Source: Nannocystis sp. RBIL2 (GTDB lineage: Bacteria; Myxococcota_A; Polyangia; Nannocystales; Nannocystaceae). From it: DNA of 64,000 nt. Every line of letters begins with the position of its first letter. Within the stretch, counting starts at the first letter, position 1. The notes beneath the pieces are model-generated. The model was given only the letters and a program-made list of their open reading frames with translations, was not told where the DNA came from and made no database searches. The stretch covers positions 1,382,151 through 1,446,150 of the forward strand of contig NZ_JAPNJW010000002.1 of the NCBI RefSeq assembly GCF_026626745.1, read 5' to 3'. The position numbers and the translations under genes were made by a program. Below are positions 1,814-20,275 of the stretch, one piece after another.

Positions 1814-2796
1814 TCTGCCCTCCAGAACTCGTAGAAGTTGAACCAGTTGAGCGGCGCGAGGCGGCAGTAGTGCTCGAGGCGTTCGGCGTAGCGCTGGACA
1901 TGGGCGGCGGTGGCGGCCTCGCGGCGGCCTCTGGGGAGTTCTAATTGTTCGGCGAAGGGCTCGCAATAAAGATCGTAGCGGTCAGGCCCGTGGTAGAGCC
2001 CGAAAGTCAAATAGATCGGGCACTTTAGCAGCGCCGCCAGGGTGTAGGGCCCGGTCGGGAAGCGCGCCGGAGCGCCCAGGAACTCGGCCGTGCAGGTCTT
2101 CTCGTTGACCCCGACCCGGTCGCCGAGCACCGCCACCAGCTCGCCGCGCTCGATCGCCTCCTTGGCGGCCAGGATGTAGCTGGTGTCGCGCGGGTCGATC
2201 GGGATCACGCGCACGTCGAAGTCGGCCCCCACCGTGCGCAAGAAGTCGTTGATCATCTTCGCGTTCTGCCAGTACGCGAGGATGTGGATCGGCAGCCGCT
2301 TGTCGACGCTGCTGGCCCGCATCGCCTCGAACGAGCCGAGGTGGGCCCCGAGCAGCAGCGCCCCCTTGCCCTGCTGCTGCAGCGCCCGCAGGTGCTCGAT
2401 GCCCGTGTGCGTGATGCGGAACCGCGACGTCTCGCCGCGGACCAGGAACACGCGGTCGAGGGCGCAGCGGGCGAACGTGTAGATGTGGCGCCAGCTGGCC
2501 CAAAAGCCGTGCGGCTGGCCGATCCGCCGCAGGTAGTCCTGCGAGGCCCGCCGCGCCGCCCCGGCGAACAGCGCGTAGTAGAAGGTGATCACCGCCAGCA
2601 GCACCCCCGCCCCGCGGCGGCCGAACACCCGGCAGAACAGCAGCGTCGCCTTGATCCCGAGCACCGTCCCGCGCTCGGGCCGGGTCATCCACGCCCGGTC
2701 GCCCTCGCCCGCGACGACGGCCGGAACGCCGCCCCCCGCGGACCCGTTCTGGTTGTCCTCCAGGACATGTCCCTTCGTACCTGCCTGCTCCGCCAT
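1810..2796 (-). CDS. LpxL/HtrB-like lysophospholipid (lipid A-type) acyltransferase
   Basis: Membrane acyltransferase (LPLAT) fold of the kind found in aryl-polyene clusters. The first 36 codons are low-complexity and contain the GGACATGTCC repeat (translated GHVLED). The true start is probably M37 at about 2688. Confidence 0.75.
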   Translation of the reverse strand: MAEQAGTKGHVLEDNQNGSAGGGVPAVVAGEGDRAWMTRPERGTVLGIKATLLFCRVFGRRGAGVLLAVITFYYALFAGAARRASQDYLRRIGQPHGFWASWRHIYTFARCALDRVFLVRGETSRFRITHTGIEHLRALQQQGKGALLLGAHLGSFEAMRASSVDKRLPIHILAYWQNAKMINDFLRTVGADFDVRVIPIDPRDTSYILAAKEAIERGELVAVLGDRVGVNEKTCTAEFLGAPARFPTGPYTLAALLKCPIYLTFGLYHGPDRYDLYCEPFAEQLELPRGRREAATAAHVQRYAERLEHYCRLAPLNWFNFYEFWRAE

Positions 2797-2829
2797 GGCC
2801 GATCGAACCTGTCCTCTCGCGCAGCCCGA

Positions 2830-3720
2830 TCAGCGGCCGGCCGGCAGCGCCGGGCGGCGCAGGCGGCGGTAGAGGTTGACCCACGGGCGCACCATCACCC
2901 GCTGGAACGACAGCCGGGTGTGCAGCCACGAGATCTTGACGTTGTCGCCGAACACGCGGAAGTGCGACACCCCGCCCTCGTCGCGGCCGATGTAACGGAC
3001 CTTCGTCGGCAGATTGATCACCGGCACCCCGGCCCACACCAGGCGGACCGCGATCTCGATGTCGAAGTCCATGCGATCGCCGGTGCGCCCGAGCGCCAGC
3101 GCGGGCACCAGCGGGTACACACGGAAGCCGCACATCGGGTCGGTGATGACCCCGCGCCCGGCCTCGAAGTTGGTCCAGAACAGCGTGATCTTGCGGGCGA
3201 TGAGCCGCCCCTTCGGCGCCGACGCGTCGTACACCGGCGCCCCGAGGATCAGCGCGTCCGGCCGCTCGTGCGCGGTGGCGAGGAATTGCGGGATGTCCCC
3301 CAGGTCATGTTGCCCGTCGGCGTCGACCTGCAGCGCGTGGGTGTAGCCGAGCTCGTGGGCGAACTGGAACCCGGTCTTGACCGCCGCCCCCTTGCCGCCG
3401 TTGTGCGGCCGTCGCCGCACGTGCGCCAGCCCCTCCGCCCCGATCGCCTCGACCGCGGCGCGGCCCTCCGGCCCCGAGCCGTCGTCGATGACGACCACGT
3501 CGGGCAGGTGCGCCTTGACCCGCAGCACCACGTCCCGCACCGTCCGCGGATTGTCGAAGGTCGGGATCAGCGCGCACGGCCGGAACGCCGCGGCCCCGGC
3601 TTCGCCTGTCCCCAGGGACACGTCCTGGCCCCCGTCCGCGCTCATGCCCGCCTCCCGGCGCGAGGCGCACCCAGCCCGCCGACCGTCGGCGACCGCTCTG
3701 TCCTCCCGGACATCTGGCAA
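2830..3720 (-). CDS. Family 2 glycosyltransferase
   Basis: Shows the GT2 signatures IPTFDN, VIDDGS and QVDADGQHD. The 5' end again overlaps a CTGTCC-N4-GGACAC repeat, and the start may be the internal MSADGG. Confidence 0.8.
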   Translation of the reverse strand: MPDVREDRAVADGRRAGCASRREAGMSADGGQDVSLGTGEAGAAAFRPCALIPTFDNPRTVRDVVLRVKAHLPDVVVIDDGSGPEGRAAVEAIGAEGLAHVRRRPHNGGKGAAVKTGFQFAHELGYTHALQVDADGQHDLGDIPQFLATAHERPDALILGAPVYDASAPKGRLIARKITLFWTNFEAGRGVITDPMCGFRVYPLVPALALGRTGDRMDFDIEIAVRLVWAGVPVINLPTKVRYIGRDEGGVSHFRVFGDNVKISWLHTRLSFQRVMVRPWVNLYRRLRRPALPAGR

Positions 3721-3750
3721 CGACCTGCGCCTTCGGCCATACGCACCGCC

Positions 3751-5616
3751 TCAGCCTCCGCGCGCCTCGTACTCGAGCGCCCCCGCCGTGACCACCTCGC
3801 CGGCCCGCGCCAGGGAGAAGCGGACGCTCGTCCCGCGGACCTCGAGCCGCAGCACCAGCGCGTCGCCCGGCGCGATCGGCCGGGTGAACTTCAGCCGCGT
3901 CGCCCGCCGCAGCGGCCCCAGCTCCGGCCGCAGCGCCGCCACCTGCGGCACCACCAGCGCGGTCAGCTGCGCCACCCCCGGCAGCACCGGCAGGGCGTCG
4001 AAGTGCCCGCGGAAGAACGCCAGGTCGACCGGCACCCCCACCTCGACCTCGTGCACCGACGACCCGCCCTCTTCGCGCAGCGTATGCCCGCGCAGCGCGA
4101 ACGCCGACGCCCCCGGGCCACCTGTCCCCGCGGACATGTCCCGTGAGCCACTCAGCCCCGATCCCGCGCTCGGTGCGTCCGTCGCCGAACTTACGGACAT
4201 GTCCCTCGGGCCACCCGCCGCGACTTCCTCTTCGCCCGCGAGCCCGAGCAGCGCGTGCAGCTTGCGCCGCGTCAGCTTGCCGCTCGGCTCGCGCGGCAGC
4301 GCCGGCACCACCTTGATCCGCCGCGGCACCACCACCTGGTCGAACCACGGCAACAGCGCCCGGCGCAGCTCGGCCACCAGCTCGCCGGCGTCGCGCCCGC
4401 CCTCGCGCGCGACCACGGCGGCCACCAGCTCGTGCCCGCGGGCGCCCGGCGACTCGACCGCCACCACCGCGGCGTCGGCCACCGCGGGCAGCGCCAGCAG
4501 CCGCTGCTCGACCTCGGCCACCGCCACTCGCTTGCCGGCGATCTTCACCACCCCGTCGAGCCGCCCGCGCAGGTGGAACCCGCCGCGCGCGTCGACCTCG
4601 ACGCGATCCTCGCACGGGTACGGCACCGGCGCGTCCGGCGCCAAGAACGGCGAGCGCAGCAGCAGCCGGCCCTCGGCCGCCACCTCGACAGTCACTCCCG
4701 GCAGCGGCGTCCAGGCTGGCTCCGGGGACATGTCCCTTAAAACATCCTCGTGCCGCCGCCAGCCGATCCCGCCGGTCTCCGACGAGCCGTACACCTCGGT
4801 CACCTGCAGGCCCAGCTTCGTCAGCAGCTCGTCGGCGGTCGCCCGTGGCAACGGCGCGCCCGACGAGAACACCCGCGACAGCGGCGGCAGGTCGCCGCGC
4901 GTCAGCACCGTCAGGCCGCGCAGGTGCGCCGGCGTGCTGACCAGCACCGTCGCCGCCACCTGCCGCGCCGCCCGGGCCACCGTCTCGGCGTGCAGCGGCG
5001 TCTCGCGGGCGAACGCCGCCCCCGCGGCCAGCGGCGCCAGGATCCCGAACAGCAGCCCGTAGAGGTGGTACGGCGGCACCGTCGCCAGCGCCACCTCCCC
5101 GGCCCGCAGGGCGAACGTGGCCGCCAGCGCCTGCGCCTCGCCGAGCAGCTGCGCGGCCGTCTTGGCGCACGGCTGGTGGTCGCCGGTGCTGCCCGAGGTG
5201 TACACGACCGCCAGCCGGCGATCGGCCGCCAGCGCTTCGGGCCATGTCGGATCGGCCATGTCCCCTGAAACATGTTCCGAGAGCCACTCGCGGACGTCCT
5301 GCGCGTCGGCCAGGTCGGAGTCGTGCAGCAGCGCGACCACCGACGGCCGCCCGGCCAGCTCGCGCACGGCCGCCGGCTGGGCGTTGGGCGGCAGCGCGAC
5401 CGCGTGGCCGCGCAGCCACGCCGCCAGGGTCGTCACCGCCAGGTGATAGCGGTCGCCGCACACCACCAGCACCTCGCTGCCCGGCGCCGGCGCCGGCAGC
5501 CGCGCCGCGATGCCCCTCGCGTCGCGCATGAGCTCGCCGGCCGTGCGCGCGCCGGCCTCGCCGACGGCGACGGGCGCCACGGGATCGGTGTGGACGAGCG
5601 GGACGAACGACTTCAT
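3751..5616 (-). CDS. AMP-dependent synthetase/ligase fused to a C-terminal hotdog (FabZ/MaoC-like) dehydratase domain
   Basis: Adenylation motifs YTSGSTG, EVYGSSET and PSGKLTRRK, followed by a hotdog domain (LRGHTLREEGG...FFRGHFDALPVLPGVAQL). The true start is MKSFVPLVHTD at 5616, ATGA-coupled to the upstream gene. The ORF-track N-terminal extension overlaps the membrane-protein frame. Confidence 0.8.
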   Translation of the reverse strand: MKSFVPLVHTDPVAPVAVGEAGARTAGELMRDARGIAARLPAPAPGSEVLVVCGDRYHLAVTTLAAWLRGHAVALPPNAQPAAVRELAGRPSVVALLHDSDLADAQDVREWLSEHVSGDMADPTWPEALAADRRLAVVYTSGSTGDHQPCAKTAAQLLGEAQALAATFALRAGEVALATVPPYHLYGLLFGILAPLAAGAAFARETPLHAETVARAARQVAATVLVSTPAHLRGLTVLTRGDLPPLSRVFSSGAPLPRATADELLTKLGLQVTEVYGSSETGGIGWRRHEDVLRDMSPEPAWTPLPGVTVEVAAEGRLLLRSPFLAPDAPVPYPCEDRVEVDARGGFHLRGRLDGVVKIAGKRVAVAEVEQRLLALPAVADAAVVAVESPGARGHELVAAVVAREGGRDAGELVAELRRALLPWFDQVVVPRRIKVVPALPREPSGKLTRRKLHALLGLAGEEEVAAGGPRDMSVSSATDAPSAGSGLSGSRDMSAGTGGPGASAFALRGHTLREEGGSSVHEVEVGVPVDLAFFRGHFDALPVLPGVAQLTALVVPQVAALRPELGPLRRATRLKFTRPIAPGDALVLRLEVRGTSVRFSLARAGEVVTAGALEYEARGG

Positions 5617-6263
5617 GCGCGGAGCAGTCGGCGGAGCAGGCGGTCGGGCAGCGCGTCGCCGAAGCGACGGAAGGTCGCCTTGCGGACGACGTACTCGACG
5701 GTGAACATTACCCCGATCAGCAGGTAGGCCAAAAGTCCGGTGTAGAGCGTCCACCAGGCCACCGGGGCCCACAGCGCCAGGCCGGCGCTGACGAGCGCGT
5801 TGGCGACGAAGAAGCCGCACCAGATCCGGGTCCACGTCCGGCAGTACTCCGGCCCGCCGGGCGGCAGGTCGGGCTCCTGCAGGCGCGCGAACCGTTCGAC
5901 CAGCGACACCGGCCCGCGCAGGCTGGCCGCGAAGTTGGCCAACAATCCCAGGTTGACCAGCACCGGCAGGGCCATGAACAGCCGCTGCTCGCCCGACAGC
6001 GCCGCCACCGCGAACAGCCCGAACAGCGACAGCGGCACCCGCAGCACCGGCCACAGGTCCTCGCGCCGGGCCTCGCGCAGGCGCAGCAGCAGCCCCGGCA
6101 GCAGCGCCGCCGCCAGCACCAGCGCCAACGTGCGCGGGCTCCAGCGCGTCATGCCGAGGTACACGACCAGCGGGTAGCCGCCGATCACCATCGACCGCAG
6201 CACCGCGGGCACCCACCTCGGGACCCCCGCGGCTCGCCGCGGCTCGCCGTTCGGGTCCGCCAT
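5613..6263 (-). CDS. Integral membrane protein of the aryl-polyene-type cluster
   Basis: 216 aa with several hydrophobic helices. The stop overlaps the AMP-ligase start, and the start lies 8 nt after the ACP stop. Confidence 0.55.
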   Translation of the reverse strand: MADPNGEPRRAAGVPRWVPAVLRSMVIGGYPLVVYLGMTRWSPRTLALVLAAALLPGLLLRLREARREDLWPVLRVPLSLFGLFAVAALSGEQRLFMALPVLVNLGLLANFAASLRGPVSLVERFARLQEPDLPPGGPEYCRTWTRIWCGFFVANALVSAGLALWAPVAWWTLYTGLLAYLLIGVMFTVEYVVRKATFRRFGDALPDRLLRRLLRA

Positions 6264-6271
6264 GTCGGGCC

Positions 6272-6559
6272 TCAGCTCGCCGCCGGCGCGCGCTGTTCAG
6301 CGACGAAGCGGGCCAGGTTGGTCACGCTGGCGAAGATGTGCCGGTTCTGGGCGTCGTCGGCGCGGGTCTTGACGCCGTACTTCTTGCCGATGGCCATCGC
6401 CAGCTCGAGCACGTCGATCGAGTCGAGGCCCAGCCCCTCGACCAGCAGCGGCGCCTCTGGGTCGATGTCCTCGGGGGTCATGTCCTGCAGCATCAGGGCC
6501 TCGATGATGAGCTCCTTGATCTCGCGGACCAGGGCGTCGGGCGGGGCGGCATCTGTCAT
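6272..6559 (-). CDS. Acyl carrier protein
   Basis: 95 aa with the GLDSIDVLEL phosphopantetheine-attachment motif. Confidence 0.85.
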   Translation of the reverse strand: MTDAAPPDALVREIKELIIEALMLQDMTPEDIDPEAPLLVEGLGLDSIDVLELAMAIGKKYGVKTRADDAQNRHIFASVTNLARFVAEQRAPAAS

Positions 6560-6727
6560 GGGGTCGGCGCATCCTACGGGGATCGCCCTGGAGACGACAA
6601 GCGGCGCCCATCATCCTCCGTGGACGCCCGAGCTGCGCGCTGCGGTCACCGACACCGCGCAAGCTCACATCTCCCCCTGGCTCTTGGTGCAGGCGACCTC
6701 GGCGGCCCTCGGTACGCTCGCCGCCGC

Positions 6728-7507
6728 ATGACAAGCACCCAGCAACCGCGGATCGCCATCGTCACCGGCGGCGGCAACGGCATCGGCCGCGCCACCGCTC
6801 TCAAGTTCGCCGAGGCCGGCTACGGCGTGGCCGTGTGGGACCTGGCCGAACAGGCAGCCGAGGAGGTCGTGTCCGCGATCACCGCCGCCGGCGGCGTCGC
6901 CATCGCCCGCAAGGTCGACGTCAGCAAGCCCGAGGACTGCGTCGCCGGGGTCGCCGCCGTGCTCGAGCGGTTCGGCCGGATCGACGTCCTCATCAACAAC
7001 GCCGGCGTCGTCCGCGACGGCCAGTTGGTCAAGGTCAAGGACGGTCAGGTGGTCGGACAGATGAGCGCCGACCAGTTCCAGTTCGTCCTCGATGTCTGCC
7101 TCAAGGGCGTGTTCAACTGCACCCAGGCGGTCGTGCCGACCATGATCGCCCAGAAGTACGGGCGAATCGTCAGCACCAGCTCGGTGGTCGCATTGTACGG
7201 CAACTTCGGCCAGACCAACTACGTCGCCGCCAAGGCCGGCGTCGTCGGCATGACGCGCGTATGGGCGCGCGAGCTCGGCCGCTACGGCATCACGGCGAAC
7301 GCCGTCGCCCCGGGCTTCATCGCCACCGACATGGTCAAGAGCATCCCGGAGAAGGTTTATAACGCGCTGATCGAGCACACCCCGGTCGGCCGCGCCGGAC
7401 AGCCCGACGACATCGCTCGCGCCTATCTCTTCCTGGCCGACGACAAGTCGAGCTTCATCAACGGCGCCATCTTGAGCGTCGACGGCGGCTCCGTCGTCGG
7501 CACCTGA
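6728..7507 (+). CDS. fabG: 3-oxoacyl-ACP reductase (SDR family)
   Basis: TGGGNGIGRA Rossmann motif, NNAG, and the YxxxK catalytic region. The start MTSTQQPRIAIVTGG is at 6728. The ORF-track 5' extension is antisense to the ACP. Confidence 0.85.
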   Translation: MTSTQQPRIAIVTGGGNGIGRATALKFAEAGYGVAVWDLAEQAAEEVVSAITAAGGVAIARKVDVSKPEDCVAGVAAVLERFGRIDVLINNAGVVRDGQLVKVKDGQVVGQMSADQFQFVLDVCLKGVFNCTQAVVPTMIAQKYGRIVSTSSVVALYGNFGQTNYVAAKAGVVGMTRVWARELGRYGITANAVAPGFIATDMVKSIPEKVYNALIEHTPVGRAGQPDDIARAYLFLADDKSSFINGAILSVDGGSVVGT

Positions 7508-7688
7508 ACCGCTGCACGCGGTTCTGATCGGGCCTCACGGGCGGCGAACGGCGTCCGTGACGGCGCGCGCGGCGCTGAACAGCATCCGCCACGGCAGGCC
7601 CTCACCCTGCCCGCGCGGACCTCGGGCCGCGCGCGGCATTTTGCCCCTTCGTTGCAGCAGCAGCGCGAAAAGACTAGCGTAACGGGCG

Positions 7689-9473
7689 ATGCACGACGAC
7701 GGCGCGCGCTGGCTACCCAAGTTTCTCGCGGACAGCGGCTACCGCCACGCGATGTATACCCATCAGTGGACCGAGGTGTTGATCTGGCGCGACACGGAGC
7801 GGTGGCTCGGCCGCGGACCCGACCGCGACAGCGCCCTCGAAGATGCGCTGACGCAGATGTTCCCGTCAGCTGCCGCGCGTCAGCTCTTCGATCGCTTCCG
7901 CGACGGCCTCCAGGAGCCAGCCCGTCCGCAGGCGGCGCCACCCAGCGCCGCAGTATCCGCCGAAGTTATCCCCGCCCCGCCCGCACCGCCCGCCCCGCCC
8001 GAACCCGAGCTACCGCGCAGCCCGATCGTCGGCCGGATCCAGCTACCGACTTATCCCGCTGCTGCGGTCGCCGAGGCGCGCGAGACCCTGGAAGAGATCC
8101 TCAAGGACATCCAGGACATGCGACCCGACTTCGCGCTGATGTCGCCGCGCTATCAGAAGGTCTACATGCTGGCGTGGATCTCACGCGCGCGCAGCTTCGA
8201 CGAGCAGTTCCAGGGCGAGCACAAGATCACCGTACTGGTGCGACGGATCGCCCACGAGCTGACGAACCTCAGCAAGACCTTGTGGCCCGGCTCGGTGCAG
8301 GCGCTGCAGATGAACGCGGTGCCCGCATGTGTGGTGACCGAGCTCGGGCTCAAGACGCTGCACGCGCCGAAGACCTGGGCCGAGGCGCACGAGTTCGTGC
8401 AGAACCATCGCGAGCGCGCGATGACCAGCGAGGTCCCGGTCGACGACTACGGCTGGGCCGACCGCCCGCGCAAGGCCCCGCCGGGCCAGCCCCGCGCCCT
8501 CCTGCGCGAGGCCCAGCGCGCCGTCGAAGCCATCGCCGGCAACGTCACCGATCCGCCGCCGCGCCACCTCACCACGCCGCCGGAGGAGCTGCCGAACGAG
8601 CAGCTCGACGCGCTCGTCAAGCACGCCCAGGCGCTGCGCGACATCCGTCGCTTCATCGCCGCCGAGGACCCCGAGACCTGGGGCGCCGTCATGGGCCGCC
8701 TGCGCTGGCTCGCGGGGCGCCTCGGCGAGCGCCTGCCGCAGCTGCGTCGCTGGCTCGACCCCGAGTTCATCCCGCCGCCCGAGCGCGCCAAGACCGGGCC
8801 CTCGGCCGATCAGGTGCGCCAGCAGCAAGCGACGGTGCGAGCCGAACGCGACGCCCTGGTCGCCGCTGACAGCTTCGACGACGAGGCCCTGCTCGCCTTC
8901 CTCGGCCGGGCCTTCGACGCCCACAACACGCCCGAGGTCGCCTCGCTGGTCCAGCCGATCCGCCCGCGCATCGACGCCCTGCGCCCCGACCTGTTCGAGG
9001 ACCGCCGCATGCGTCGCCGCCTCACCGGCCTGCAGGACGTGATCAAGCGCGGAGAGCTCGGCGTGCTGCCGTCCGACAGCGACAGCGACCTCGAGGAAGA
9101 GACCGAAGACGTCGACGATCCGGGCGCGCACCTGGTCGCCCAGGTCCGGCCCAAGGTCGAGGGCAAGCGGGTCCTGTTCGTCAGCAACCGCGAAGACCCC
9201 GACCTCAAGTCGAAGCTCGAGGAGTCGCTCGGCCTCGACATCACCTGGTGCGACGGCAACGCCCGCAAGGTCCAGGCCCAGTGCGAGAGCATCTCGCGCC
9301 ACAGCTACGACTACGTGCTGATCGCCACCGGCTTCCAGGCCCACAACATCGACGGCATCCTCGCCCGCGCCGCCCGGGCCAGCGCCATCCCGTACGTCCG
9401 CGTGTTCAAGGGCCGCCCCCTCGCGGTCGCCCGCGCCCTCGCCCGCAGCCTCGGCGTCGCCTCCGCCGCCTGA
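7689..9473 (+). CDS. Hypothetical protein (594 aa)
   Basis: Long ORF with non-repetitive, balanced composition; no family recognised by eye. The alternative-frame ORFs over the same span are Arg/Pro-rich artefacts. Confidence 0.5.
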   Translation: MHDDGARWLPKFLADSGYRHAMYTHQWTEVLIWRDTERWLGRGPDRDSALEDALTQMFPSAAARQLFDRFRDGLQEPARPQAAPPSAAVSAEVIPAPPAPPAPPEPELPRSPIVGRIQLPTYPAAAVAEARETLEEILKDIQDMRPDFALMSPRYQKVYMLAWISRARSFDEQFQGEHKITVLVRRIAHELTNLSKTLWPGSVQALQMNAVPACVVTELGLKTLHAPKTWAEAHEFVQNHRERAMTSEVPVDDYGWADRPRKAPPGQPRALLREAQRAVEAIAGNVTDPPPRHLTTPPEELPNEQLDALVKHAQALRDIRRFIAAEDPETWGAVMGRLRWLAGRLGERLPQLRRWLDPEFIPPPERAKTGPSADQVRQQQATVRAERDALVAADSFDDEALLAFLGRAFDAHNTPEVASLVQPIRPRIDALRPDLFEDRRMRRRLTGLQDVIKRGELGVLPSDSDSDLEEETEDVDDPGAHLVAQVRPKVEGKRVLFVSNREDPDLKSKLEESLGLDITWCDGNARKVQAQCESISRHSYDYVLIATGFQAHNIDGILARAARASAIPYVRVFKGRPLAVARALARSLGVASAA

Positions 9474-9487
9474 GCCGCTGGCTCCGA

Positions 9488-9525
9488 GGACATGTCCTCA
9501 CGAACATGTCCTCGCGTACATGTCC
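9488..9525. repeat. Three tandem direct copies of ACATGTCCTC, 14-nt period
   Basis: GGACATGTCCtcacgAACATGTCCtcgcgTACATGTCCtc, intergenic between the gene ending at 9473 and the DUF2975/XRE operon. Confidence 0.6.
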
Positions 9526-9781
9526 TCGCAGACACGCGAGGCCGACGGTCGCGCCTCACGGCGCGCGTCCCATTGTCCAGGAGCTCATCCCAGCGCGAAC
9601 GACCCGCCCGCGGTGCGACCCGGCCCGGCTGGGCCCGCTCGCGACCTGGAGCAGATCCGTGTGGTCCTCGCCACAAAGCTCCGGCGCCCGCGCGTCCTCG
9701 CGCATCGCTCCCGATCGACGCCAGCGCCTGCAGGCCAGGCGTTCCGCCACGTTCTCCGCCGCCATGTCAAGCTAGCTTGAC

Positions 9782-10264: not shown

Positions 10265-10266
10265 CC

Positions 10267-10494
10267 GTGGAGCCCGCACGCGGCAGCGTGAAGAACCGGA
10301 TCCGCCAGCTCCGCTTCGAGCACGGCGAGATGACGCAGCAGGAGCTGGCCGAGCGGATCGGCGTCAGCCGCCAGACCGTCAACGCGATCGAGGGCGGCAA
10401 GTACGCCCCGTCGCTCGAGGTCGCCTTCCGGATCGCCCTCGTCTTCACAGTCCCGCTCGAGACCGTATTTCAGTTCGACCCCGACGCGAAGTGA
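10267..10494 (+). CDS. XRE-family (YozG-like) helix-turn-helix regulator
   Basis: HTH motif QQELAERIGVSRQTVNAIEGGKYAPS. GTG start 2 nt after the membrane-protein stop. Confidence 0.7.
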   Translation: MEPARGSVKNRIRQLRFEHGEMTQQELAERIGVSRQTVNAIEGGKYAPSLEVAFRIALVFTVPLETVFQFDPDAK

Positions 10495-10528
10495 GGGTCC
10501 CGCGCAACTGTCCCTTCGGACAGGCGCA

Positions 10529-11158: not shown

Positions 11159-11213
11159 CGACGCCACTTCAACACGTCCGCCCCGGCCGCGACAAGCGCT
11201 ACAGTCCCTGCGC

Positions 11214-11510: not shown

Positions 11511-11961
11511 CCCCGCCGCGTGCCAGACTCGCCGCGTGCTGCAGCCCGTCGTCATCAGCGAAGCCGAGCTCGACCGCCGCCACGGCACCTTCGCCCGGCT
11601 CGCCTCGGGCGGCCGCTACGGCTGCGCCTGCGCCGTCTACGACGGCGACGTCACGATCGACGGCGACGGCTGGCTGGACGACGAGCACTGGTCGCAGCTG
11701 CAGCTCGCCGCCGCCCCCGACGACATCGGCACCATCGTCGTCACCGGCAGCCTGACGGTGCGGGGCGACCTCTGCGTGTCCGACCGGCTGATGTGCGCCG
11801 TCGTCCTCGGCGACCTGGTCGCCCGCGAGCTCGCCATCTTCGAGACCGAGTTCTACGTCGGCGGCGACCTGCGGGTCGAACGCCTGCGCGACCGCGACGA
11901 GTACCTCACGGTCGCCGGCGCGCGCTCGGTCGCCCACCCCGACGTCGATCCCGACGAATGA
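11476..11961 (+). CDS. Hypothetical protein
   Basis: 161-aa ORF downstream of the repeat cluster; the start may be the internal GTG (VLQPVVISE). Confidence 0.4.
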   Translation: MSMTPCRTRDIAPAACQTRRVLQPVVISEAELDRRHGTFARLASGGRYGCACAVYDGDVTIDGDGWLDDEHWSQLQLAAAPDDIGTIVVTGSLTVRGDLCVSDRLMCAVVLGDLVARELAIFETEFYVGGDLRVERLRDRDEYLTVAGARSVAHPDVDPDE

Positions 11962-12022
11962 ACCTGTCCCGAGTGACATGTCCCCCAGGACATGTCACTC
12001 GCCGCCTGTCCCGCAGGACAGC
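11962..12022. repeat. Nested perfect palindromes
   Basis: CCTGTCCcgaGTGACATGTCCcccaGGACATGTCACtcgccgCCTGTCCcgcaGGACAGcc. Lies in the convergent 3' intergenic region before the M16 peptidase. Confidence 0.65.
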
Positions 12023-12029
12023 CCCCGGC

Positions 12030-14897: not shown

Positions 14898-15139
14898 GAA
14901 CCGCGTCCCGCCCCGTCCTCCGCTCGCGGACCGCCGTCACCGCCCCTCCCTGTCGATCTCGTCACGCACCCCGCCGCGATCTCGACCGCGCTCGGCACCG
15001 TCGCACCACCGACGAGCCCGCTCGGCGATCTCGCCGCCGACGCCGGCTGTCGTCATTCCCGGCCGCTCCCTCCGCCTGCGCGCCCACGCCCGCGCCCGCA
15101 GGCCGGTGCGCCGCCCGTGTTCTGCGGTATGGTCCCGCC

Positions 15140-17008
15140 GTGCTCTCTCCGACGCTCGCGTTGCGCTGCCCGCATTGCCAGCACGCCCTCTCGCTCGCCG
15201 ACCTCCGCGACGCCGCCGACTGCCCTGCGTGCCGCCAGTCCCACGGCTTGCCTCCGGCCGTCGCCGACGCCCTGGCCCTCTACGAGCGGGCGATCCAGCA
15301 AGCAGTCAGCGACCTGGTCCACAGCGCACCTGTCCCGAAGGTCAGCCCCGAACCCGAGGCCGAGGCCCCGCCGCCGAGCCCGCGGCTCCACGCGCGCCAC
15401 CAGCCCGGCCCCTCGGCCCGGCTGCTCGCCGCTCCCGTCCCGCCGACCACCCTGCTCTCGATCGGCCCGGCCCCGCCGCCCGCAGTCCCGGCCCCCGTGC
15501 GACCTGTCCTGAGGGACAGCGCTGCTCCGCTCGACGCTCCCGAGCCCGGCGACACCTTGCAAGGCCCCCGCCCCGGTCGCTGGGCGGAAGCCCGACCCGG
15601 CACCCTGCCGGCCGAGCTGGCCGCGGGCCTGGGCGTCCACGGCCACGACGCCGCGCCGGAGCCGGCCCAGCTGTCCCTGCCCGTCGAAGCAACTGTCTCC
15701 GCGGACACGCGATTCCAACCTGTCCCCACGGACAGCCGGAACATCGACCCCAAGGACACGCGATCTCAACCTGTCCCCACGGACAGCCAGCACTTATCTG
15801 CCCCTTCGGACAGCCACATCACCGCCCGCCACACCTCCCCGCCACCTGTCCCTGCAGACAGCTCACCCGCCGCCCCGGCCCCGCTCACCGCGGTCGCTCC
15901 CGGCTTCGACCCCGCCGCGCTGTCCGGCCCCTTGCCCGCCCCGCGCGAGCAGGCACCTGGCCTCGGGGCCAGCCTCGCCCGCGACCCGGCCGCGCGGACG
16001 ACCGCCAGCGACACCCTCCCCGGCGCCGCGTTGAACCCGTCGAACTCCTCGCTCCTGGCGATCCTCTCCAACCGCTCCGGCGCCAGCCTCAGCACGCCCT
16101 CCTCGACGGCGGGGCTCGCGGCTCCGCCCGGCGGTCTGGCCGAGGCGCCGCTGGTGGTCGCCGCGGTGCGCGAGCCCGCCGACCGCCCGCCGTCCCCCGC
16201 GACCCAGGAGCTGATCGCCGCAGTCCGCTCCTTCCTCCCCGATCGCCGCGACGTCGCCGGCCCCGAGCCCGAGGGGCGGATCCCCGCCAGCGCCCTCGCG
16301 GTCGCCCGCCGCGCCCTCCTGGCCCGCCACGCCGACGAGCGGCGCCAGCAGCAAGTCCACGACGGCGGCCTCGGTCTCCTGTTCGCCGCCATCGTCTGCG
16401 GCGGCCTGCTCCTGTTCGGCCTGTGGTACGTCGCCGCCCCGATCGCCGTCCTCGCCGTCCTCCTGCGTCTGCGCCGCGAGGAGCGCGGCGAGCGGTTCGG
16501 CGCCGAGGTCCAGCGCCTCGGCGACGCGCTCGGCGGCCAGCGCCTCCCCAGCTACGACGCCATCGCCGCGTGGTTCGATCGTCTGTGGCCCGCGCCCGTC
16601 AGCCCCGAGGCGATGTGGACCAGCCACCTGCACGGGGCGGTCCGCTGCGACGTGCACGGCTTCCCCGCGCTGGTCGACGTCCACCTGAACGAAAAGACAG
16701 CCGGCGGCGTCGTCTACCCGCCGCGGATCACCGCCTACCTCGCCGCCCTCTGGCCCAGCCGCGTGCCCTCTCTGCGCATCACCGCCACCGACCTCACCCC
16801 CGCCGCCCAGGCCCGGCTCGCGCGCCTGCGCAAGGCCGGCTACACCGTCGTCGCCGACGCCCACGGCGGCCTCATCATGCGCGCCAGCGAGTCGATCGCC
16901 CAGGCCGCGCGGGCGGACATCACCCGTCTGCCCGCGCTGCAGGTCCCGATCGGCGAGCTCGCCGACCTCGCCCGCGACCTCGGGGCCGAGCCCGTCCCCG
17001 CGCCCTAG
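15140..17008 (+). CDS. Membrane protein with N-terminal zinc ribbon, long Pro-rich disordered region and C-terminal cytoplasmic domain
   Basis: CPHCQH...CPACRQ zinc ribbon, one transmembrane helix (LLFAAIVCGGLLLFGLWYVAAPIAVLAVLL). The disordered region is built from in-frame palindromic repeats (PVPTDS, three copies). Confidence 0.55.
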   Translation: MLSPTLALRCPHCQHALSLADLRDAADCPACRQSHGLPPAVADALALYERAIQQAVSDLVHSAPVPKVSPEPEAEAPPPSPRLHARHQPGPSARLLAAPVPPTTLLSIGPAPPPAVPAPVRPVLRDSAAPLDAPEPGDTLQGPRPGRWAEARPGTLPAELAAGLGVHGHDAAPEPAQLSLPVEATVSADTRFQPVPTDSRNIDPKDTRSQPVPTDSQHLSAPSDSHITARHTSPPPVPADSSPAAPAPLTAVAPGFDPAALSGPLPAPREQAPGLGASLARDPAARTTASDTLPGAALNPSNSSLLAILSNRSGASLSTPSSTAGLAAPPGGLAEAPLVVAAVREPADRPPSPATQELIAAVRSFLPDRRDVAGPEPEGRIPASALAVARRALLARHADERRQQQVHDGGLGLLFAAIVCGGLLLFGLWYVAAPIAVLAVLLRLRREERGERFGAEVQRLGDALGGQRLPSYDAIAAWFDRLWPAPVSPEAMWTSHLHGAVRCDVHGFPALVDVHLNEKTAGGVVYPPRITAYLAALWPSRVPSLRITATDLTPAAQARLARLRKAGYTVVADAHGGLIMRASESIAQAARADITRLPALQVPIGELADLARDLGAEPVPAP

Positions 17009-17012
17009 CGCC

Positions 17013-17438
17013 GTGTCCGTCACGCGTGAACACGCGACCACGTCCGCCCGGTGTCCCCAGTGTGGGACCGGCGTGACCGTGCATCACACCGTCGCCCGCC
17101 GCGACGACGGGGTCCGTTGGTCCACCGCGATCCGCTGCCTCGCCTGCGGCCTCTCGCTCGAGTCGGACAGCAACGCCGGCGACTCGGCCGCGCGAGCCGC
17201 CGTGCTGGCCACCAACGGCTCGTGGATCGTCCGCCTCACCAGCCTCGGCCCGCGACCGATCCGCGTCCTGCGGGCCCTCCGCGACACTCTCGGCCTCTCG
17301 CCCGCCGTCGCCCGCACGCGCCTCGCCGCCCTCGCCCAGGGCACCCGCGTCGAGATGGAGGCGCTGCTGGCCAAGTTCGTCCGCGAGGGCGCCGAGGGCA
17401 CCTGCGTCCGCGTCGAGCCGACCTCCGGCCCGCGCTGA
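17013..17438 (+). CDS. Zinc-ribbon protein with ribosomal L7/L12 C-terminal-like domain
   Basis: CPQCG...CLACG, then IRVLRALRDTLGLSPAVARTRLAALAQGTRVEMEALLAKFVREGAEGTCVRV, which resembles the L7/L12 CTD. Confidence 0.45.
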   Translation: MSVTREHATTSARCPQCGTGVTVHHTVARRDDGVRWSTAIRCLACGLSLESDSNAGDSAARAAVLATNGSWIVRLTSLGPRPIRVLRALRDTLGLSPAVARTRLAALAQGTRVEMEALLAKFVREGAEGTCVRVEPTSGPR

Positions 17439-17605
17439 CCGACGACCCCGACCCTCCTCGCGCAGCGCCGCCGATGCATGGCCCATCCATCGCATCGAGG
17501 ACCTCGCCCCCGTCCTCGCGTCGCGCGTGGAGACCTCCGCGCCTCGCTCCGCCGCGAGCGTTGCCGCGCCGCCGAATCGACGGCGCCTTTGGTTATGCTC
17601 GCAGC

Positions 17606-18370
17606 ATGGGTTCGTTGCGAGACAAGGTCGCGCTGATCGTCGGCGGCAACTCGGGCATCGGCAAGGCGACCGCCTTCGCCTTCGCCGACGCCGGGGCCAG
17701 GATCGTGGTCGCCGCCCGTCGCCGGGCCGAGGGGCTCGACGTCGTCGAGCAGCTGCGCGCCCGCGGCACCCCTGCGATCTTCGTCCCCCTCGACGTCACC
17801 GTCGAGGACGACATCGTCGCCGGCGTCGCCGCCACCGTCGCCGAGTTCGGCCGCCTCGACTGCGCGGTCAACTCCGCCGGCATCTGCGAGGACTTCGGCC
17901 CCGTCACCGACGTCGACGGCGCCGCCTTCGATCGCATGATGGCCGTCAACGTCCGCGGCACCCTCCTCGGCATGAAGCACCAGCTGAAGCAGATGGTCGC
18001 GCAGGGCGGCGGCGGCAGCATCGTCAACGTCGCCTCGATCCTCTCCCACGTCGGCACGCCCACCGGTTCGGCCTACGTCGCCACCAAGCACGCCGTCCTC
18101 GGCATCACCCGCTCGGCCGCCCTCGGCCACGCCAAGCAGGGCATCCGCGTCAACTGCGTCGCCCCGACCGCCATCACCGGCACGCCGATGGTCGACAACG
18201 CCCTGGCGAACTTCCCCGCGGTCATGGAGCCCGTCATCTCCGCCATCCCGATGGGCCGCCCCGGCCGCGCCGACGAGGTCGGCCGCGCGATCGCCTGGCT
18301 CAGCAGCGACGACGCCGCCTTCATCTCCGGCCACTCCCTGGCGATCGACGGCGCCCAGCTCGCCATGTGA
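17606..18370 (+). CDS. Short-chain dehydrogenase/reductase
   Basis: GGNSGIGKA, NSAG and YVATKHA motifs. Start MGSLRDKVALIVGG at 17606. Confidence 0.85.
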   Translation: MGSLRDKVALIVGGNSGIGKATAFAFADAGARIVVAARRRAEGLDVVEQLRARGTPAIFVPLDVTVEDDIVAGVAATVAEFGRLDCAVNSAGICEDFGPVTDVDGAAFDRMMAVNVRGTLLGMKHQLKQMVAQGGGGSIVNVASILSHVGTPTGSAYVATKHAVLGITRSAALGHAKQGIRVNCVAPTAITGTPMVDNALANFPAVMEPVISAIPMGRPGRADEVGRAIAWLSSDDAAFISGHSLAIDGAQLAM

Positions 18371-18487
18371 GCGCTGCGCATTATCTGTCCATTTGGGCAT
18401 GTCCATTCAGACATGGCTCAAAAGACAGCAACGAACGTGAGGCCGGTTACGTGAGCATCGCGCGGGCGTTCGACTCTGTCTCTTCAA

Positions 18488-18525
18488 GAATGTCCTCCAG
18501 GACATGTCCTCTCGGGCATGTCCTC
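18488..18525. repeat. Second triple tandem ATGTCCTC array
   Basis: gAATGTCCTCcagGACATGTCCTCtcgGGCATGTCCTCg, in the convergent 3' intergenic region between the SDR and the S41 peptidase. Confidence 0.6.
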
Positions 18526-18547
18526 GACCCATCACCCCGGCCGCGCC

Positions 18548-19681
18548 TCACTTCGGCTGCAGCTCGCGGAGCCGCTCCTCCAGCTCCGCCTTCAGCTCCG
18601 GGTCCGTCGCCTTGGCGATCTGCTGCTCGATCAGCTTGACCTGGACCACCCGCAGCGCGTCCTCGGCCGGCACCGCGATGTCGGGTTGCACGCCCACCCC
18701 CTCCCAGTTCGTCTTCGAGACTGGGTTTATCGCCCGGCCCGTCGGCACGAACGCCCGGAAGTGGTCGCCGAGGCGGACCATGTCGCCCGGGTTCGCCCCG
18801 CCCCACGTCACCTCGCCGACGATCGTCGCCCGCTTCAGGTTCTTCAGGTTGTACGCGAACTCCTCCGCCGCCGACCCCGTGCGCGGGCTCGTCAGCACGT
18901 AGACCTCGCGGCCCACGTAGGACTCGCCCGGCACCGGCGACGTCCAGAACTGGCGCGTCTCGTTGGCTGGCCGGAAGTACAGGTCGTTCAGGTGGACCGG
19001 CTCGTCGAACAGATAGCTGCACAGGTACGCCACCATCTCCGGCGATCCGCCCCCGTTGCGGCGCAGGTCGACGATCAGCGCGTCGGTCTCCGCCAAAAAC
19101 GCCATCGCCGCCGACGCCGCCTCGAACCCGCGGCCGGGGAACGCGAACCCGCGCACTTCCAGGTAGCCGATGTTGCCGGGCAGCCGCTCGACCTTCTCGA
19201 ACCCCCCGTTCATGCGGCGCGAGAAGTCCTCGAAGCGAGCCAGCTCCTCGGCCGACGGCTTCCCCTCGGTCTGCTGCGGCGGCAGCGTCTCCTTGCTGAA
19301 GCGGACGTGGAAGTGCGCGTCGCGCAGCACCTCGTTGATGTCGTTCGTCAGCGTCGTCGCCAGCGCGTGGCCCGTCGTGATCTTGTCGTACTCGCCGCGC
19401 TTGCGGCGGGCGCGGATCACCTTGGCCACCTCGTTGGCCTTGGCCGGGAACACGTACTTCGCCGTCAGTTCGCGCGCCAGCGCCTCGACCGCCTCCTCGC
19501 GCTCCGCCGCGGTGATCGGCCCGTCCGGCCCTCTCGGCGGCGGCGCCTTCGGCACTGCCATCTGCGGCCCGCCGGAGCTCGGCGGCGTCGCGGCCGGACT
19601 GGCGACCGCCGCCTTCGCGCAGCCGATCGTGTGCAACGTGGATAGCGCCAACCAACCGAGGATCACTGTCGACAATCGCAT
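18548..19681 (-). CDS. S41 family C-terminal processing peptidase, lipoprotein
   Basis: Lipobox LHTIGCAK and the S41 signature LIVDLRRNGGGS. Confidence 0.8.
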   Translation of the reverse strand: MRLSTVILGWLALSTLHTIGCAKAAVASPAATPPSSGGPQMAVPKAPPPRGPDGPITAAEREEAVEALARELTAKYVFPAKANEVAKVIRARRKRGEYDKITTGHALATTLTNDINEVLRDAHFHVRFSKETLPPQQTEGKPSAEELARFEDFSRRMNGGFEKVERLPGNIGYLEVRGFAFPGRGFEAASAAMAFLAETDALIVDLRRNGGGSPEMVAYLCSYLFDEPVHLNDLYFRPANETRQFWTSPVPGESYVGREVYVLTSPRTGSAAEEFAYNLKNLKRATIVGEVTWGGANPGDMVRLGDHFRAFVPTGRAINPVSKTNWEGVGVQPDIAVPAEDALRVVQVKLIEQQIAKATDPELKAELEERLRELQPK

Positions 19682-19702
19682 CTTCGCCTCACCTCTTCGA
19701 CT

Positions 19703-20275
19703 TCACTTCGCGCCGCGCGTCCGCGCCCGTGCCGGCGCCGGCTTGCCCCGCGCCGGCTTGCCCCGCGTCGGCTTCGCCCGTGCCGACCGCTTCGCCGCGC
19801 GTCGAGCCTCCGCCGCCGGCGCGACCACGCTCTTCAGCAGCAGCGCCGCCATGCGCCGGACCTCGACCTCGACCTTCGCCCGCTCGCCGAGCTCGGCGAC
19901 GCTCAGGCTGAACGGCAGGAACGCATTGGTCGCCTTCACCAGAGTCGACGCAGTCGCCGCCGCGTCCTCGACCTCGAACCGCCCGCACGCCACGCCGGCC
20001 GCCAGCACCCCGGCCACCAGCGCCACCTCGCGCTCCATGTGAGCTGTCCTTCGGGCCATGTACCCCGGCCGCACCGCCTCGAACAGCTCGTCGAGGCTCT
20101 GGCGGTACGCGCTGACGCTGTCGAACCGCCGCAGCACCCGCTCGATCAGCACCGCGCGCAGCACCTCGGCCGGATCGCCGCCCCCGCTCGCCAGCGCCAC
20201 CAGCCGCGCGTACGTCTGCGCCACCACCCGGTCGATCGACGACAGCCCGACCTCTTCCTTGCTCGGGAAGTACCA
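19703..20275 (-). pseudogene. TetR-family regulator lacking its N-terminal HTH (5'-truncated at an integration junction)
   Basis: The TetR ligand domain begins at KWYFPSKEEV. Sequence upstream of that belongs to the integrase 3' end in a different frame, so the HTH is missing. Confidence 0.6.

Follow-up and report, generated by a model that had tools for sequence, protein, structure and literature searches.

A 14-bp periodic palindromic repeat of Nannocystis genomes with resemblance to REP/BIME elements

REP and BIME sequences are repetitive extragenic palindromes of enterobacteria and pseudomonads, and the related REPINs are mobilised by RAYT transposases (Y1 HUH). The uptake sequences of Neisseria (DUS) and the Pasteurellaceae (USS) are asymmetric 9–12-mers that work singly. 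Rickettsia palindromic elements (RPE) are 100–150 bp in length and largely intragenic, and MIRU sequences are 40–100 bp and present at a few dozen loci per genome. In cyanobacteria, the highly iterated palindrome HIP1 (GCGATCGC) recurs quasi-periodically through genes and has two orphan methyltransferases linked to it (PMC5861425, PMC4390886). A palindromic repeat that is abundant in a 64,000-nt stretch of DNA from Nannocystis sp. RBIL2 (the window) is compared here with these systems. Repeats of this kind are known in other bacteria, but the one in Nannocystis seems to be undescribed; no published description was found in the searchable literature, in agreement with the initial annotation, which knew of no equivalent in Myxococcota.

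The decamer GGACATGTCC is present in six exact copies in the window (Table 1), where dinucleotide shuffles give an expectation of 0.06. With one mismatch allowed there are 17 sites (1.9 expected), 16 of which are within 2.7–18.6 kb. CTGTCC-N4-GGACAG has five exact occurrences (0.01 expected). For TGTCC-N4-GGACA, when one mismatch is allowed, the count is 37 (1.8 expected), 29 of them to the left of 20.28 kb. The proposed over-representation is therefore real, and it holds beyond the window: when the 10-mers of 536 kb are ranked by z-score, with the hits that selected the loci masked beforehand, GGACATGTCC is at the top with 42 sites against about one expected. Every position initially listed holds a copy or degenerate copy, apart from the atypical AGACAG-CC-TGTCT at 12633, which is outside the family geometry.

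The decamer and the CTGTCC-N4-GGACAG palindrome, initially described as two motif types, are two phases of a single 14-bp periodic palindrome, (GGACA-TGTCC-N4)n. The unit consists of the self-complementary decamer and a free 4-nt spacer. In the other phase it is a stem loop with 8-nt arms, AC[A/C]TGTCC and GGACA[T/G]GT, and a fixed 4-nt loop, and two neighbouring units give a hairpin of 10–14 bp that reads identically on either strand. TGTCC-N4-GGACA occurs 164 times, no other spacer length between 0 and 12 gives more than five, and GGACA-N0-TGTCC occurs 110 times; the half-sites are almost exclusively found as dyads with a spacing of 0 or 4. Distances between units peak at 14, 28, 42 and 56 bp (95, 29, 30 and 13 pairs). 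Of 19 exact decamers in unbiased loci, 17 are flanked by a half-site at N4 when one mismatch is allowed, vs 3% at random positions. The sequence signal around the decamer ends within about 33 bp, with none further out. The spacer is free, but the exact arm sequence and the fixed spacing are conserved.

Table 1. Copies of the repeat and the integrase gene in the window
Feature	Position	Strand	Context
Exact GGACATGTCC sites	2763, 4132, 4195, 4726, 9488, 18500
One-mismatch site (LAEGT)	1736..1749	-	TAL gene; no indel vs outgroups
TGTCC-TCCA-GGACATGTCC, 1.5 units	2754..2772		58 nt downstream of GT2 stop (2830); at or before acyltransferase gene start
TGTCCCCAGGGACACGTCC	3607..3625		5' end of GT2 gene; N-terminal extension missing from outgroups
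TGTCC-TCCC-GGACA	3699..3712		between ligase-dehydratase stop (3751) and GT2 start
Two in-frame copies, RDMS...RDMSAGT	4123..4213	-	linker between AMP-ligase and ApeI-dehydratase domains
In-frame doublet EDVLRDMS	4726..4749	-	AMP-binding domain loop; rare codons GAT GTT TTA AGG
Degenerate in-frame doublet EHVSGDMA	5240..5263	-	AMP-binding domain
Array, 3.5 units of 14 bp	9485..9534		begins 12 nt past stop of gene 7689-9473; 11-bp hairpin
Single hairpin CTGTCC-CTTC-GGACAG	10508..10523		34-bp convergent gap 10494/10529
Two hairpins, 14-bp and 6-bp stems	11962..12022		fill convergent gap 11961/12030
Seven in-frame ACCTGTCC-N4-GGACAG-type copies (PVPxDS)	15328..15860	+	proline-rich segment of Zn-ribbon protein
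Two-unit array	18385..18413		15 nt past SDR gene stop (18370)
2.6-unit array	18490..18525		23 nt past S41 peptidase gene stop (18548, minus strand)
One-mismatch copy	20044..20058		TetR remnant; final copy ahead of synteny break at 20280
Integrase gene	20277-21326	-

The density of the repeat depends on genomic context. It is 4.68 per kb in convergent gaps, 1.45 in tandem gaps, 0.91 in divergent gaps and 0.37 in coding sequence, i.e., convergent 3' gaps are about 13 times denser than coding sequence. Copies are found 3–60 nt past stop codons, and 45 of the 60 in tandem gaps are nearer the upstream stop. The initial annotation was correct in placing copies in convergent gaps, which have the highest density of all contexts. 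Its statement that many copies lie inside coding sequences is valid in that in-frame copies exist, but most copies are intergenic. Those said to sit exactly at gene 5' ends are mostly at starts of shadow open reading frames on the wrong strand. The copy at junction 2754..2772 is also present in N. pusilla, N. exedens and SCPEA4.

In-frame coding copies are a real minority and are confined to linkers, loops and disordered segments. About a third of the exact decamers fall in coding sequence. A single preferred frame had been proposed, and DMS is the commonest (22 copies, with 12 in GHV and one in TC), but this bias is weaker than the 97.5% DMS that codon usage alone predicts. Relative to the codon-usage expectation, coding copies are in excess by 59-fold in the DMS frame and up to about 1300-fold in the GHV frame, and they carry TTA, GGA, CAT and GTT codons in a genome where third positions are about 90% GC. 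The proposed peptide additions are present: RDMS occurs twice in the linker, the AMP-binding domain has EHVSGDMA and EDVLRDMS, and the Zn-ribbon protein has seven PVPxDS-type copies, which include tandem repeats of 27 and 51 bp. Sites in conserved domains do not fit that proposal. Those at 3294 (GT2 core) and 6476 (ACP) show no indel relative to outgroups, as is the case for the TAL site, which points to an origin of the TAL site by substitution or chance and not by insertion. Comparison of orthologs shows 0–4 RDMS copies in the ligase-dehydratase linker across Nannocystis and none in outgroups. In ST9 and P0051, which are the most distant two of the aligned homologs, the AMP-binding loop (4726..4749) lacks the motif and is shorter by 4–10 residues. 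Some copies are true additions in frame. The element-linked indels between the window and N. pusilla are all tandem copy-number changes. The exact decamer of the ligase loop is kept in lineages down to 66% protein identity, with a different element variant at 58%; from sequence comparison, this persistence could reflect selection or homogenisation and not passive survival.

The repeat is present in thousands of copies in Nannocystis genomes. Every Nannocystis species sampled has it genome-wide at about 0.5 sites per kb, and a scan of 185,579 species found 106 blocks, 62 of them from Nannocystis or Nannocystaceae and scattered over whole chromosomes. In the same syntenic cluster the density is 1.1–1.4 per kb in four Nannocystis species, 0.2–0.4 in relatives with 58–66% protein identity and 0 in Nannocystaceae ST9. 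The 2.7–20 kb segment is a dense region but nothing special; six of 53 sampled 8-kb genome blocks reach 1.25–1.9 sites per kb. Within the window the density decreases from 1.43 per kb (positions 1–20280) to 0.18 per kb (20281–64000), and synteny with N. pusilla and N. exedens stops at 20280–20285, which bears out the early view of a host-specific family that is scarce to the right of the integrase junction. The variable flanks of other species, together with the integrase-linked region, have 0.11–0.67 per kb vs 1.4–1.7.

ILAH1 (the window) and N. pusilla are 95.8% identical. Element-linked indels separate them by 17 units of 14 bp (244 bp), by three 70-bp repeats (208 bp) and, in the linker, by 51 bp. 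At locus 9485..9534 there are 3.5 units in the window vs 20.6 in N. pusilla, locus 10508..10523 is represented in N. pusilla by four copies of a 70-bp composite repeat, and linker 4123..4213 has a 51-bp tandem duplication there. Linker variation between species consists of 51–63 bp tandem duplication and not new insertion. All element-linked indels in the 14 kb compared with N. pusilla are tandem and none is a new dispersed insertion, so that transposition is inferred and not observed. Four species hold sites at the same positions. Between ILAH1 and N. exedens, where the sample is only 17 sites, 6 of 10 coding sites (control 0.53) and 1 of 7 non-coding sites (control 0.23) are conserved. The five conserved TGTCC-N4-GGACA sites all have a changed spacer and unchanged arms.

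The explanation we favour, with somewhat better than even confidence, is that the repeats form a REP/BIME-like family of interspersed short palindromes that is specific to Nannocystis and its closest relatives and acts at the DNA level. Its genome-wide spread preceded the divergence of the sampled Nannocystis species, and DNA past the integrase junction has few copies. Copies survive where they are least harmful, right after stop codons and chiefly between convergent genes. Intragenic copies are tolerated only in linkers, in surface loops and in disordered segments, where their length leaves the reading frame intact and where they impose rare codons, and local copy number shifts through tandem slippage or unequal exchange. 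The element would act as DNA, i.e., as a palindrome or cruciform, as a slippage substrate and possibly as the substrate of a putative enzyme, and not through an RNA hairpin under selection. Its dispersal into new sites would be ancient and rare today, and any current hairpin role at transcript 3' ends would be secondary. No mobilising enzyme or binding protein was found. A RAYT-like C-terminal motif of the Y..NP..AG. type had no match in six-frame translations of about 0.9 Mb, a weak test on less than 1% of the genomes concerned. The GT(A/G)G head of classical REPs is missing from the position profiles of 109 decamers and 37 stem loops. To our knowledge, the unit of 14–24 bp is shorter than every REP shown to be mobile.

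RNA hairpins selected independently to end transcription or shield mRNA 3' ends, with the similarity between copies incidental to function, are an improbable explanation. The location of copies shortly past stop codons and their strong enrichment in convergent gaps are consistent with it. The fold z-scores of the gap arrays run from -2 to -6, and the hairpins are stable on both strands (-6.0 and -5.1 for the two strands of 11962..12022), and arm positions -1 and +14 co-vary (A-T 59, C-G 31, unpaired combinations 45; p = 6e-4). However, an identical stem sequence with a loop of exactly 4 nt recurs genome-wide, compensated two-mismatch variants are only weakly enriched (7.3% vs 2.7–6.3% in slid controls), the sense strand shows no preference for wobble pairs (45 vs 57), and the coding share of the exact decamers also argues against selected hairpins. 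No T run follows the arms in the position profiles, so the hairpin plus U tract of an intrinsic terminator is not formed, and none of the five consensus terminator matches in 1–20 kb coincides with a copy. Rfam covariance models run on 1–22 kb gave a single sub-threshold chance match, away from the elements. The reading of the initial annotation, an RPE-like mobile element that chiefly inserts in frame into genes, is very unlikely. In-frame copies in the ligase linker, in loops and in the Zn-ribbon protein resemble such insertions, as does the linker copy number that varies between species. Nevertheless, the unit is 14 bp and not 100–150 bp, coding density is the lowest among contexts, conserved-domain sites have no indel and the linker variation is tandem duplication; the context statistics largely refute this reading, and the RPE analogy is not supported. 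We give still less credence to operator sites through which a regulator would control the aryl-polyene-like gene cluster at 0.3–7.5 kb. The 5-N4-5 dyad geometry is that of FNR/CRP-type operators and four species have a high density throughout the cluster, but the sites are on all chromosome regions sampled and are located after genes, not before. The high density runs to 20 kb, well past the cluster, and ST9 has the same cluster with zero sites. This reading is refuted by the genome-wide distribution. Sites restricted to the promoters of one regulon, as in a cluster-specific operator, were not seen.

A recognition signal that selection or molecular drive maintains genome-wide, as with HIP1 or the uptake sequences of Neisseria and Haemophilus, is possible but clearly short of likely. 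Its candidate reader would be a methyltransferase, a nucleoid, segregation or recombination factor, or a DNA-uptake receptor that reads the dyad as a dimer, and arrays would carry dimers phased 14 bp apart. The conserved arms and spacing around a free spacer, the spacer changes at all five sites conserved in N. exedens, the forcing of the motif on coding DNA despite codon usage and its retention at the same protein loop in lineages at 58–66% identity all suggest such a signal. So does its depletion in the integrase-linked region and in the variable flanks seen in other species. The transcribed strand shows no excess of G·U wobble, which is what a signal read on DNA would give, and density, inverted pairs after genes and frame effects parallel the uptake sequences. 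On the other hand, no cognate protein is known or was found, conservation relative to N. exedens is not above controls in the small sample of 17 sites, and the arrays behave as unstable tandem repeats. HIP1 is fairly even through genes but the Nannocystis motif is concentrated in convergent gaps, uptake sequences are non-palindromic, and a centre-to-centre spacing of 14 bp would place adjacent dimers on different helix faces. The more specific proposal that the decamer dyad is a functional signal throughout Nannocystis genomes, read on double-stranded DNA by a dedicated protein with dimers phased 14 bp apart and maintained by selection or drive, is slightly more doubtful again. If true, the selection or drive would be of such strength that enzyme loops are made to accept rare codons (TTA, GGA, CAT) and the signal stays at the same protein site across those diverged lineages. 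The signal would then be a Myxococcota counterpart of HIP1 and the uptake sequences, marking native vs acquired DNA. A signal that is read, and not a passive repeat, would also provide a tractable Myxococcota case of the long-open question posed by HIP1, namely the reason for which genomes retain a short palindrome thousands of times over.

The repeat is a simple sequence marker of native vs recently acquired DNA in the 11–13-Mb Nannocystis genomes. These genomes are mined for natural-product gene clusters. The repeat gives rise to length variation in intergenic regions and in protein linkers, and this variation may serve strain typing. It is also a likely source of errors in assembly and gene calling. 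Gene callers here take the ATG of the motif as a start codon, and genes are split or extended around the motif.

Compared with known systems, the repeat shares with the MIRU/VNTR of mycobacteria the tandem arrays between operon genes or past genes and a copy number that varies among close relatives, but MIRUs are not palindromic decamers dispersed in thousands of copies. Like RPEs, it can sit in frame in protein genes and add peptide segments; its unit, however, is only 14 bp and mostly intergenic, with coding copies limited to linkers, loops and disordered regions. It resembles DUS and USS in a density around one per 1–2 kb, in hairpin-capable inverted pairs past genes, in preferences for reading frames and protein segments and in depletion in foreign DNA. 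It differs in that even a single unit is a dyad, with fixed spacing, and not an asymmetric 9–12-nt word that works singly in either orientation. With HIP1 it has in common an exact short palindrome that is about 40-fold over-represented, above the genome-wide excess of at least 15-fold taken as the mark of a HIP1-type palindrome, occurs in coding DNA against codon preference, is clade-specific and is sparse in seemingly recently acquired DNA. Unlike HIP1, it is concentrated past stop codons and builds tandem arrays with a 14-bp period, and no methyltransferase is known for it. Like REP/BIME, it is an imperfect short palindrome that numbers hundreds to thousands of copies and has a lineage-specific sequence; doublets give longer hairpins, and there are clusters and composite tandem arrays such as the 70-bp repeats of N. 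pusilla. The arms and 4-nt loop amount to 20 nt and doublet stems to 10–14 bp, in the range of REP stem loops (palindromes of about 20–40 nt), and the preference for extragenic positions at gene 3' ends and in convergent gaps is also that of REPs. The differences from REPs are a 14-bp unit in strict 14-bp phase without the GT(A/G)G head, a sizeable minority of copies in frame inside genes, and a core that is a perfect self-complementary decamer, so that direct and inverted copies look the same.

The decamer GGACATGTCC is present in six exact copies in the window, compared with 0.06 expected from shuffles, and the palindrome CTGTCC-N4-GGACAG in five (0.01 expected). With one mismatch allowed, there are 17 decamers vs. 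1.9 expected and 37 TGTCC-N4-GGACA sites vs. 1.8 expected. The over-represented palindromes described in the initial annotation are thus real. Chance and codon bias as the source of their excess are ruled out by the shuffles, an order-3 Markov model and a codon-usage model. Copies are found at all positions listed in that annotation except 12633, which is atypical, but its division into two motif types does not stand. The sites viewed in context form arrays with a period of 14 bp, e.g., GGACATGTCCTCAC GAACATGTCCTCGC GTACATGTCC at 9488. Where two TGTCC-N4-GGACA units meet they form GGACATGTCC, so what had been taken for two types is a single unit, (GGACA-TGTCC-N4)n, read in two phases.

The anatomy of the unit was analyzed in ~0.55 Mb of Nannocystis DNA. 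TGTCC and GGACA are separated by a spacer of 4 at 164 sites, and by any other spacer from 0 to 12 at no more than five; GGACA-N0-TGTCC is found at 110 sites. Distances between decamer-like sites peak at 14, 28, 42 and 56 bp. The arms reach 8 nt, AC[A/C]TGTCC and GGACA[T/G]GT, and the variable positions -1/+14 co-vary, i.e., there are 59 A-T and 31 C-G pairs vs. 45 unpaired (p = 6e-4). Spacer composition tracks the local strand composition, and the unit has no orientation of its own. The hexamers TTTTAA/TTAAAA are very rare in the 72% GC Nannocystis DNA; in 10 of 22 cases they are within 45 nt of element units and often represent the unit's spacer. TTTTAAAA is 34-fold above expectation in Nannocystis loci.

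The doublet TGTCC-N4-GGACATGTCC was searched for in one genome per species from 185,579 species, and at least 106 blocks of 8 kb matched. Among the matches listed, 62 of the 106 blocks are from Nannocystis/Nannocystaceae, these being spread over the chromosomes of N. punicea, N. exedens, N. pusilla, N. bainbridge and N. radixulma and over contigs of several MAGs; the other 44 listed are single chance-level hits with no further copies (0.05 sites per kb). With the selecting hits masked, GGACATGTCC is the top over-represented 10-mer in the Nannocystis blocks (42 vs. ~1 expected). The enumeration suggested initially was carried out on sampled 8-kb blocks; one-mismatch 14-mers have a mean of ~0.5 per kb (0 to 1.9 per kb per block). 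This extrapolates to several thousand sites per genome, from blocks chosen because they contain one doublet, which was masked for the estimate. Elsewhere in the genome the mean density is only ~1/3 that of the 2.7-20 kb block. In the same syntenic cluster there are 1.1-1.4 sites per kb in four Nannocystis species, 0.2-0.4 in relatives at 58-66% protein identity and 0 in Nannocystaceae ST9. The distribution also shows that the stretch at 2.7-20 kb is a dense region, not a unique one.

Genes of the window were mapped by third-position GC and Pfam (see table). The AMP-ligase protein is 100% identical to a protein of Nannocystis sp. ILAH1, the strain name used here. The motif-bounded + strand ORFs within the ligase region were rejected as genes, as they have no Pfam matches and the minus-strand frame encodes the AMP-ligase/dehydratase fusion; they are shadow ORFs of the ligase gene. 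A conserved aryl-polyene-like cluster is found in the left part of the window and in L001 (N. pusilla), L003, L005 and L112-L114, with TAL, a 4-coumarate-type ligase/ApeI dehydratase fusion, ACP, KR, GT2 and a lipid-A-type acyltransferase, continuing with 4HBT, LolA, MMPL and DUF3261. Its synteny extends from Nannocystis to Nannocystaceae ST9 (ligase identity 45%). Public gene calls near elements differ between genomes and include a GT2 start on the motif's ATG, a GT2 split in two and an acyltransferase fused to TAL. Automatic annotation probably suffers from the presence of the repeat.

Genes, arrays and other features of the window and of comparison loci (L numbers)
Feature	Location	Strand	Details
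TAL (aromatic amino-acid lyase), lipid-A-type acyltransferase, GT2 glycosyltransferase, AMP-ligase/ApeI-type dehydratase fusion, unknown protein, ACP	284-6559	-	third-position GC + Pfam
AMP-ligase fused to ApeI-type dehydratase	3751-5616	-	
Rejected ORFs	4255-4740, 4750-5268, 5272-5727	+	motif-bounded
Ketoreductase	6728-7507	+	
Unknown proteins, small HTH protein, M16 peptidase, Zn-ribbon protein with proline-rich segment, SDR, S41 peptidase, TetR remnant	right of ketoreductase		
Tyrosine-integrase gene	20277-21326	-	
Aryl-polyene-like cluster	284-7507		
Arrays directly 3' of stop codons	9485-9534, 10508-10523, 11962-12022, 18385-18413, 18490-18525		
ILAH1/N. pusilla indel	~9506		244 bp = 17 units of 14 bp
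ILAH1/N. pusilla indel	~10497		208 bp = three 70-bp composite repeats
ILAH1/N. pusilla indel	ligase linker		51 bp
N. pusilla arrays	L001 5848-6128, 4628-4870		
67-bp repeats	L012 3774-3974		
Extra 196-aa gene of N. pusilla	L001 2343-2933		
Counterpart gap in ILAH1	11957-12003		
27-bp in-frame repeats	39904-39966, 15693-15785; L051 6774-6914; L005 212-296		
TTTTAA/TTAAAA near units	4737; L050 4071, L075 5586, L028 6971, L021 443		
Synteny break in TetR gene	19703-21326 region		
Differing public gene calls	L005 11850; L001 12020-12828, 12862-15423		

With genes called by third-position GC in 58 Nannocystis blocks and the left part of the window, there are 4.68 elements per kb in convergent gaps, 1.45 in tandem gaps, 0.91 in divergent gaps and 0.37 in coding sequence. 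In tandem gaps, 45 of 60 elements are closer to the upstream stop, typically 3-60 nt past it. Five window arrays are directly 3' of stop codons, four of them in convergent gaps, and all five fold as hairpins with stems of up to 14 bp and z-scores of -2 to -6 vs. shuffles. Canonical terminators and known RNA families were considered for the identity of the elements and none matched: no U tract was found 3' of the window arrays, and neither overlapping consensus terminators nor Rfam matches were found at element copies in the window.

The in-frame copies stressed in the initial annotation are present in a linker, in loops and in a disordered segment, but they represent a tolerated minority; coding density is the lowest of the four contexts. 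In the comparison of orthologs suggested there, the ligase-dehydratase linker of Nannocystis exceeds that of outgroups by 120-290 nt, and the number of its RDMS copies varies among species (0-4); a further 51-bp tandem duplicate is present in N. pusilla. Doublets in two loops of the AMP-binding domain read (G/E)HV-x-x-DM(S/A) and use codons that are very rare in the genome (TTA, GGA, CAT, GTT and AGG). In the most distant homologs, one of the two loops lacks the motif and is shorter by 4-10 residues; at this loop a 66%-identity relative has the exact decamer and a 58%-identity relative the other element variant, ACCTGTCC-CCGG-GGACAGGT. Seven PVPxDS-type copies are located in the proline-rich segment of the Zn-ribbon protein. 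In the TAL, ACP and GT2 cores, one-mismatch sites show no indel relative to outgroups; these sites arose by substitution or chance.

Coding decamers are read in the DMS frame 22 times, GHV 12 times and TC once. From codon usage alone, 97.5% would be expected in the DMS frame, and the coding decamers in that amount of coding sequence would total only 0.4. The frame spread and the number of decamers, compared with this prediction, therefore imply a sequence imposed at the DNA level. Protein-level selection then filters the imposed sequence, e.g., the cysteine-encoding frame is nearly absent. There are also 27-bp in-frame tandem repeats, each with one CTGTCC/GGACAG-type unit, whose period is coding-compatible (14 + 13 bp); they are distinct from the intergenic arrays of 14 bp.

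Over 14 kb, ILAH1 and N. pusilla share 95.8% identity. All element-linked indels in this 14 kb are tandem copy-number changes, and no new dispersed element copies were seen. The 3.5 units of one ILAH1 array correspond to 20.6 tandem copies of GCGAGGACATGCGC in N. pusilla. At another site, a single hairpin of ILAH1 corresponds in N. pusilla to four copies of a 70-bp composite repeat, which combines the element hairpin with a second inverted repeat (CCGAGC...GCTCGG); L012 has similar repeats of 67 bp. In four species the elements are at the same gene boundaries and protein sites, and most are therefore older than these species. Conservation of exact sites between ILAH1 and N. exedens is not above that of control words (17 sites only); in five of five conserved TGTCC-N4-GGACA sites, the spacer has changed and the arms are unchanged. 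An extra 196-aa gene (~790 bp more) separates the M16 peptidase gene from the 143-aa gene in N. pusilla, and the counterpart gap in ILAH1 has only two hairpins. The indel borders at element copies hint at recombination or deletion between elements.

At position 20,280 the density of one-mismatch TGTCC-N4-GGACA sites drops from 1.43 to 0.18 per kb, with 29 of the 37 sites on the left side and 8 on the right. Homology to N. pusilla ends at 20280 and to N. exedens at 20285. This synteny break is inside a TetR gene and coincides with the integrase stop codon; the ILAH1 TetR is without its N-terminal domain (TetR_N). No tRNA that could be an integration target near 20.28 kb is present in the window. 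DNA beyond TetR is different in ILAH1, N. pusilla and N. exedens, and has 0.11-0.67 sites per kb vs. 1.4-1.7 in the conserved block, in agreement with the earlier proposal that the motif is sparse in acquired or variable DNA.

G·U wobble is not favored on the transcribed strand (45 pairs vs. 57 on the other), which speaks against RNA-level selection via sense-strand wobble. Compensated variants in the 5-bp core are only weakly enriched, the loop has a constant length of 4 nt and the same stem sequence recurs genome-wide. Together with the wobble parity, this points to a DNA-level palindrome or a product of common descent rather than individually selected RNA hairpins. The genome-wide, lineage-specific distribution, the context densities and the absence from the cluster of ST9 rule out an operator of a cluster-specific regulator. 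A KOPS-like polarity was considered for the arm variant GGACAGGT (complementary-strand form, ACCTGTCC), which favors the G-rich strand by 90 to 17 in the 58 Nannocystis loci of L006-L111 and window positions 1-20280. That strand is presumably the leading strand, and GC-skew sign follows the replichores in complete genomes. The bias is real, but strand composition alone predicts ~2:1 and tandem copies inflate the observed value, which is far from KOPS-grade.

The main rival explanation is that of a recognition signal maintained by selection or drive, similar to HIP1 or uptake sequences. In its favor are the exact core, the fixed spacing, the rare codons that the element imposes and its persistence at one protein loop across deep lineages; it is weakened by the strong bias to 3' gaps, by array instability and by the absence of measurable excess conservation. 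The best-supported interpretation is that Nannocystis has a REP/BIME-like family of interspersed palindromic repeats. In this view the family is ancient and mostly extragenic, located at 3' ends; it forms hairpins and changes in copy number via slippage, and a tolerated minority of copies is carried in frame within protein linkers and loops. No enzyme, methylase or binding protein for the element was identified, so its mode of spread is one that we infer.

No description of this motif for bacteria, or of comparable repeats for Nannocystis or myxobacteria, came up in literature searches, in keeping with the initial remark that no described Myxococcota equivalent was known; in the literature, GGACATGTCC appears only as a p53 half-site. 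The element is of significance as a marker of native DNA and as a cause of length differences in linkers and intergenic regions, and is a possible test case for why short palindromes persist in thousands of copies. It is not a member of the strict REP/RAYT class, as the GT(A/G)G head is absent and a motif search of low power yielded no RAYT gene. The initial comparison with Rickettsia palindromic elements is not upheld, since the Nannocystis element differs from these in both size and preferred location.
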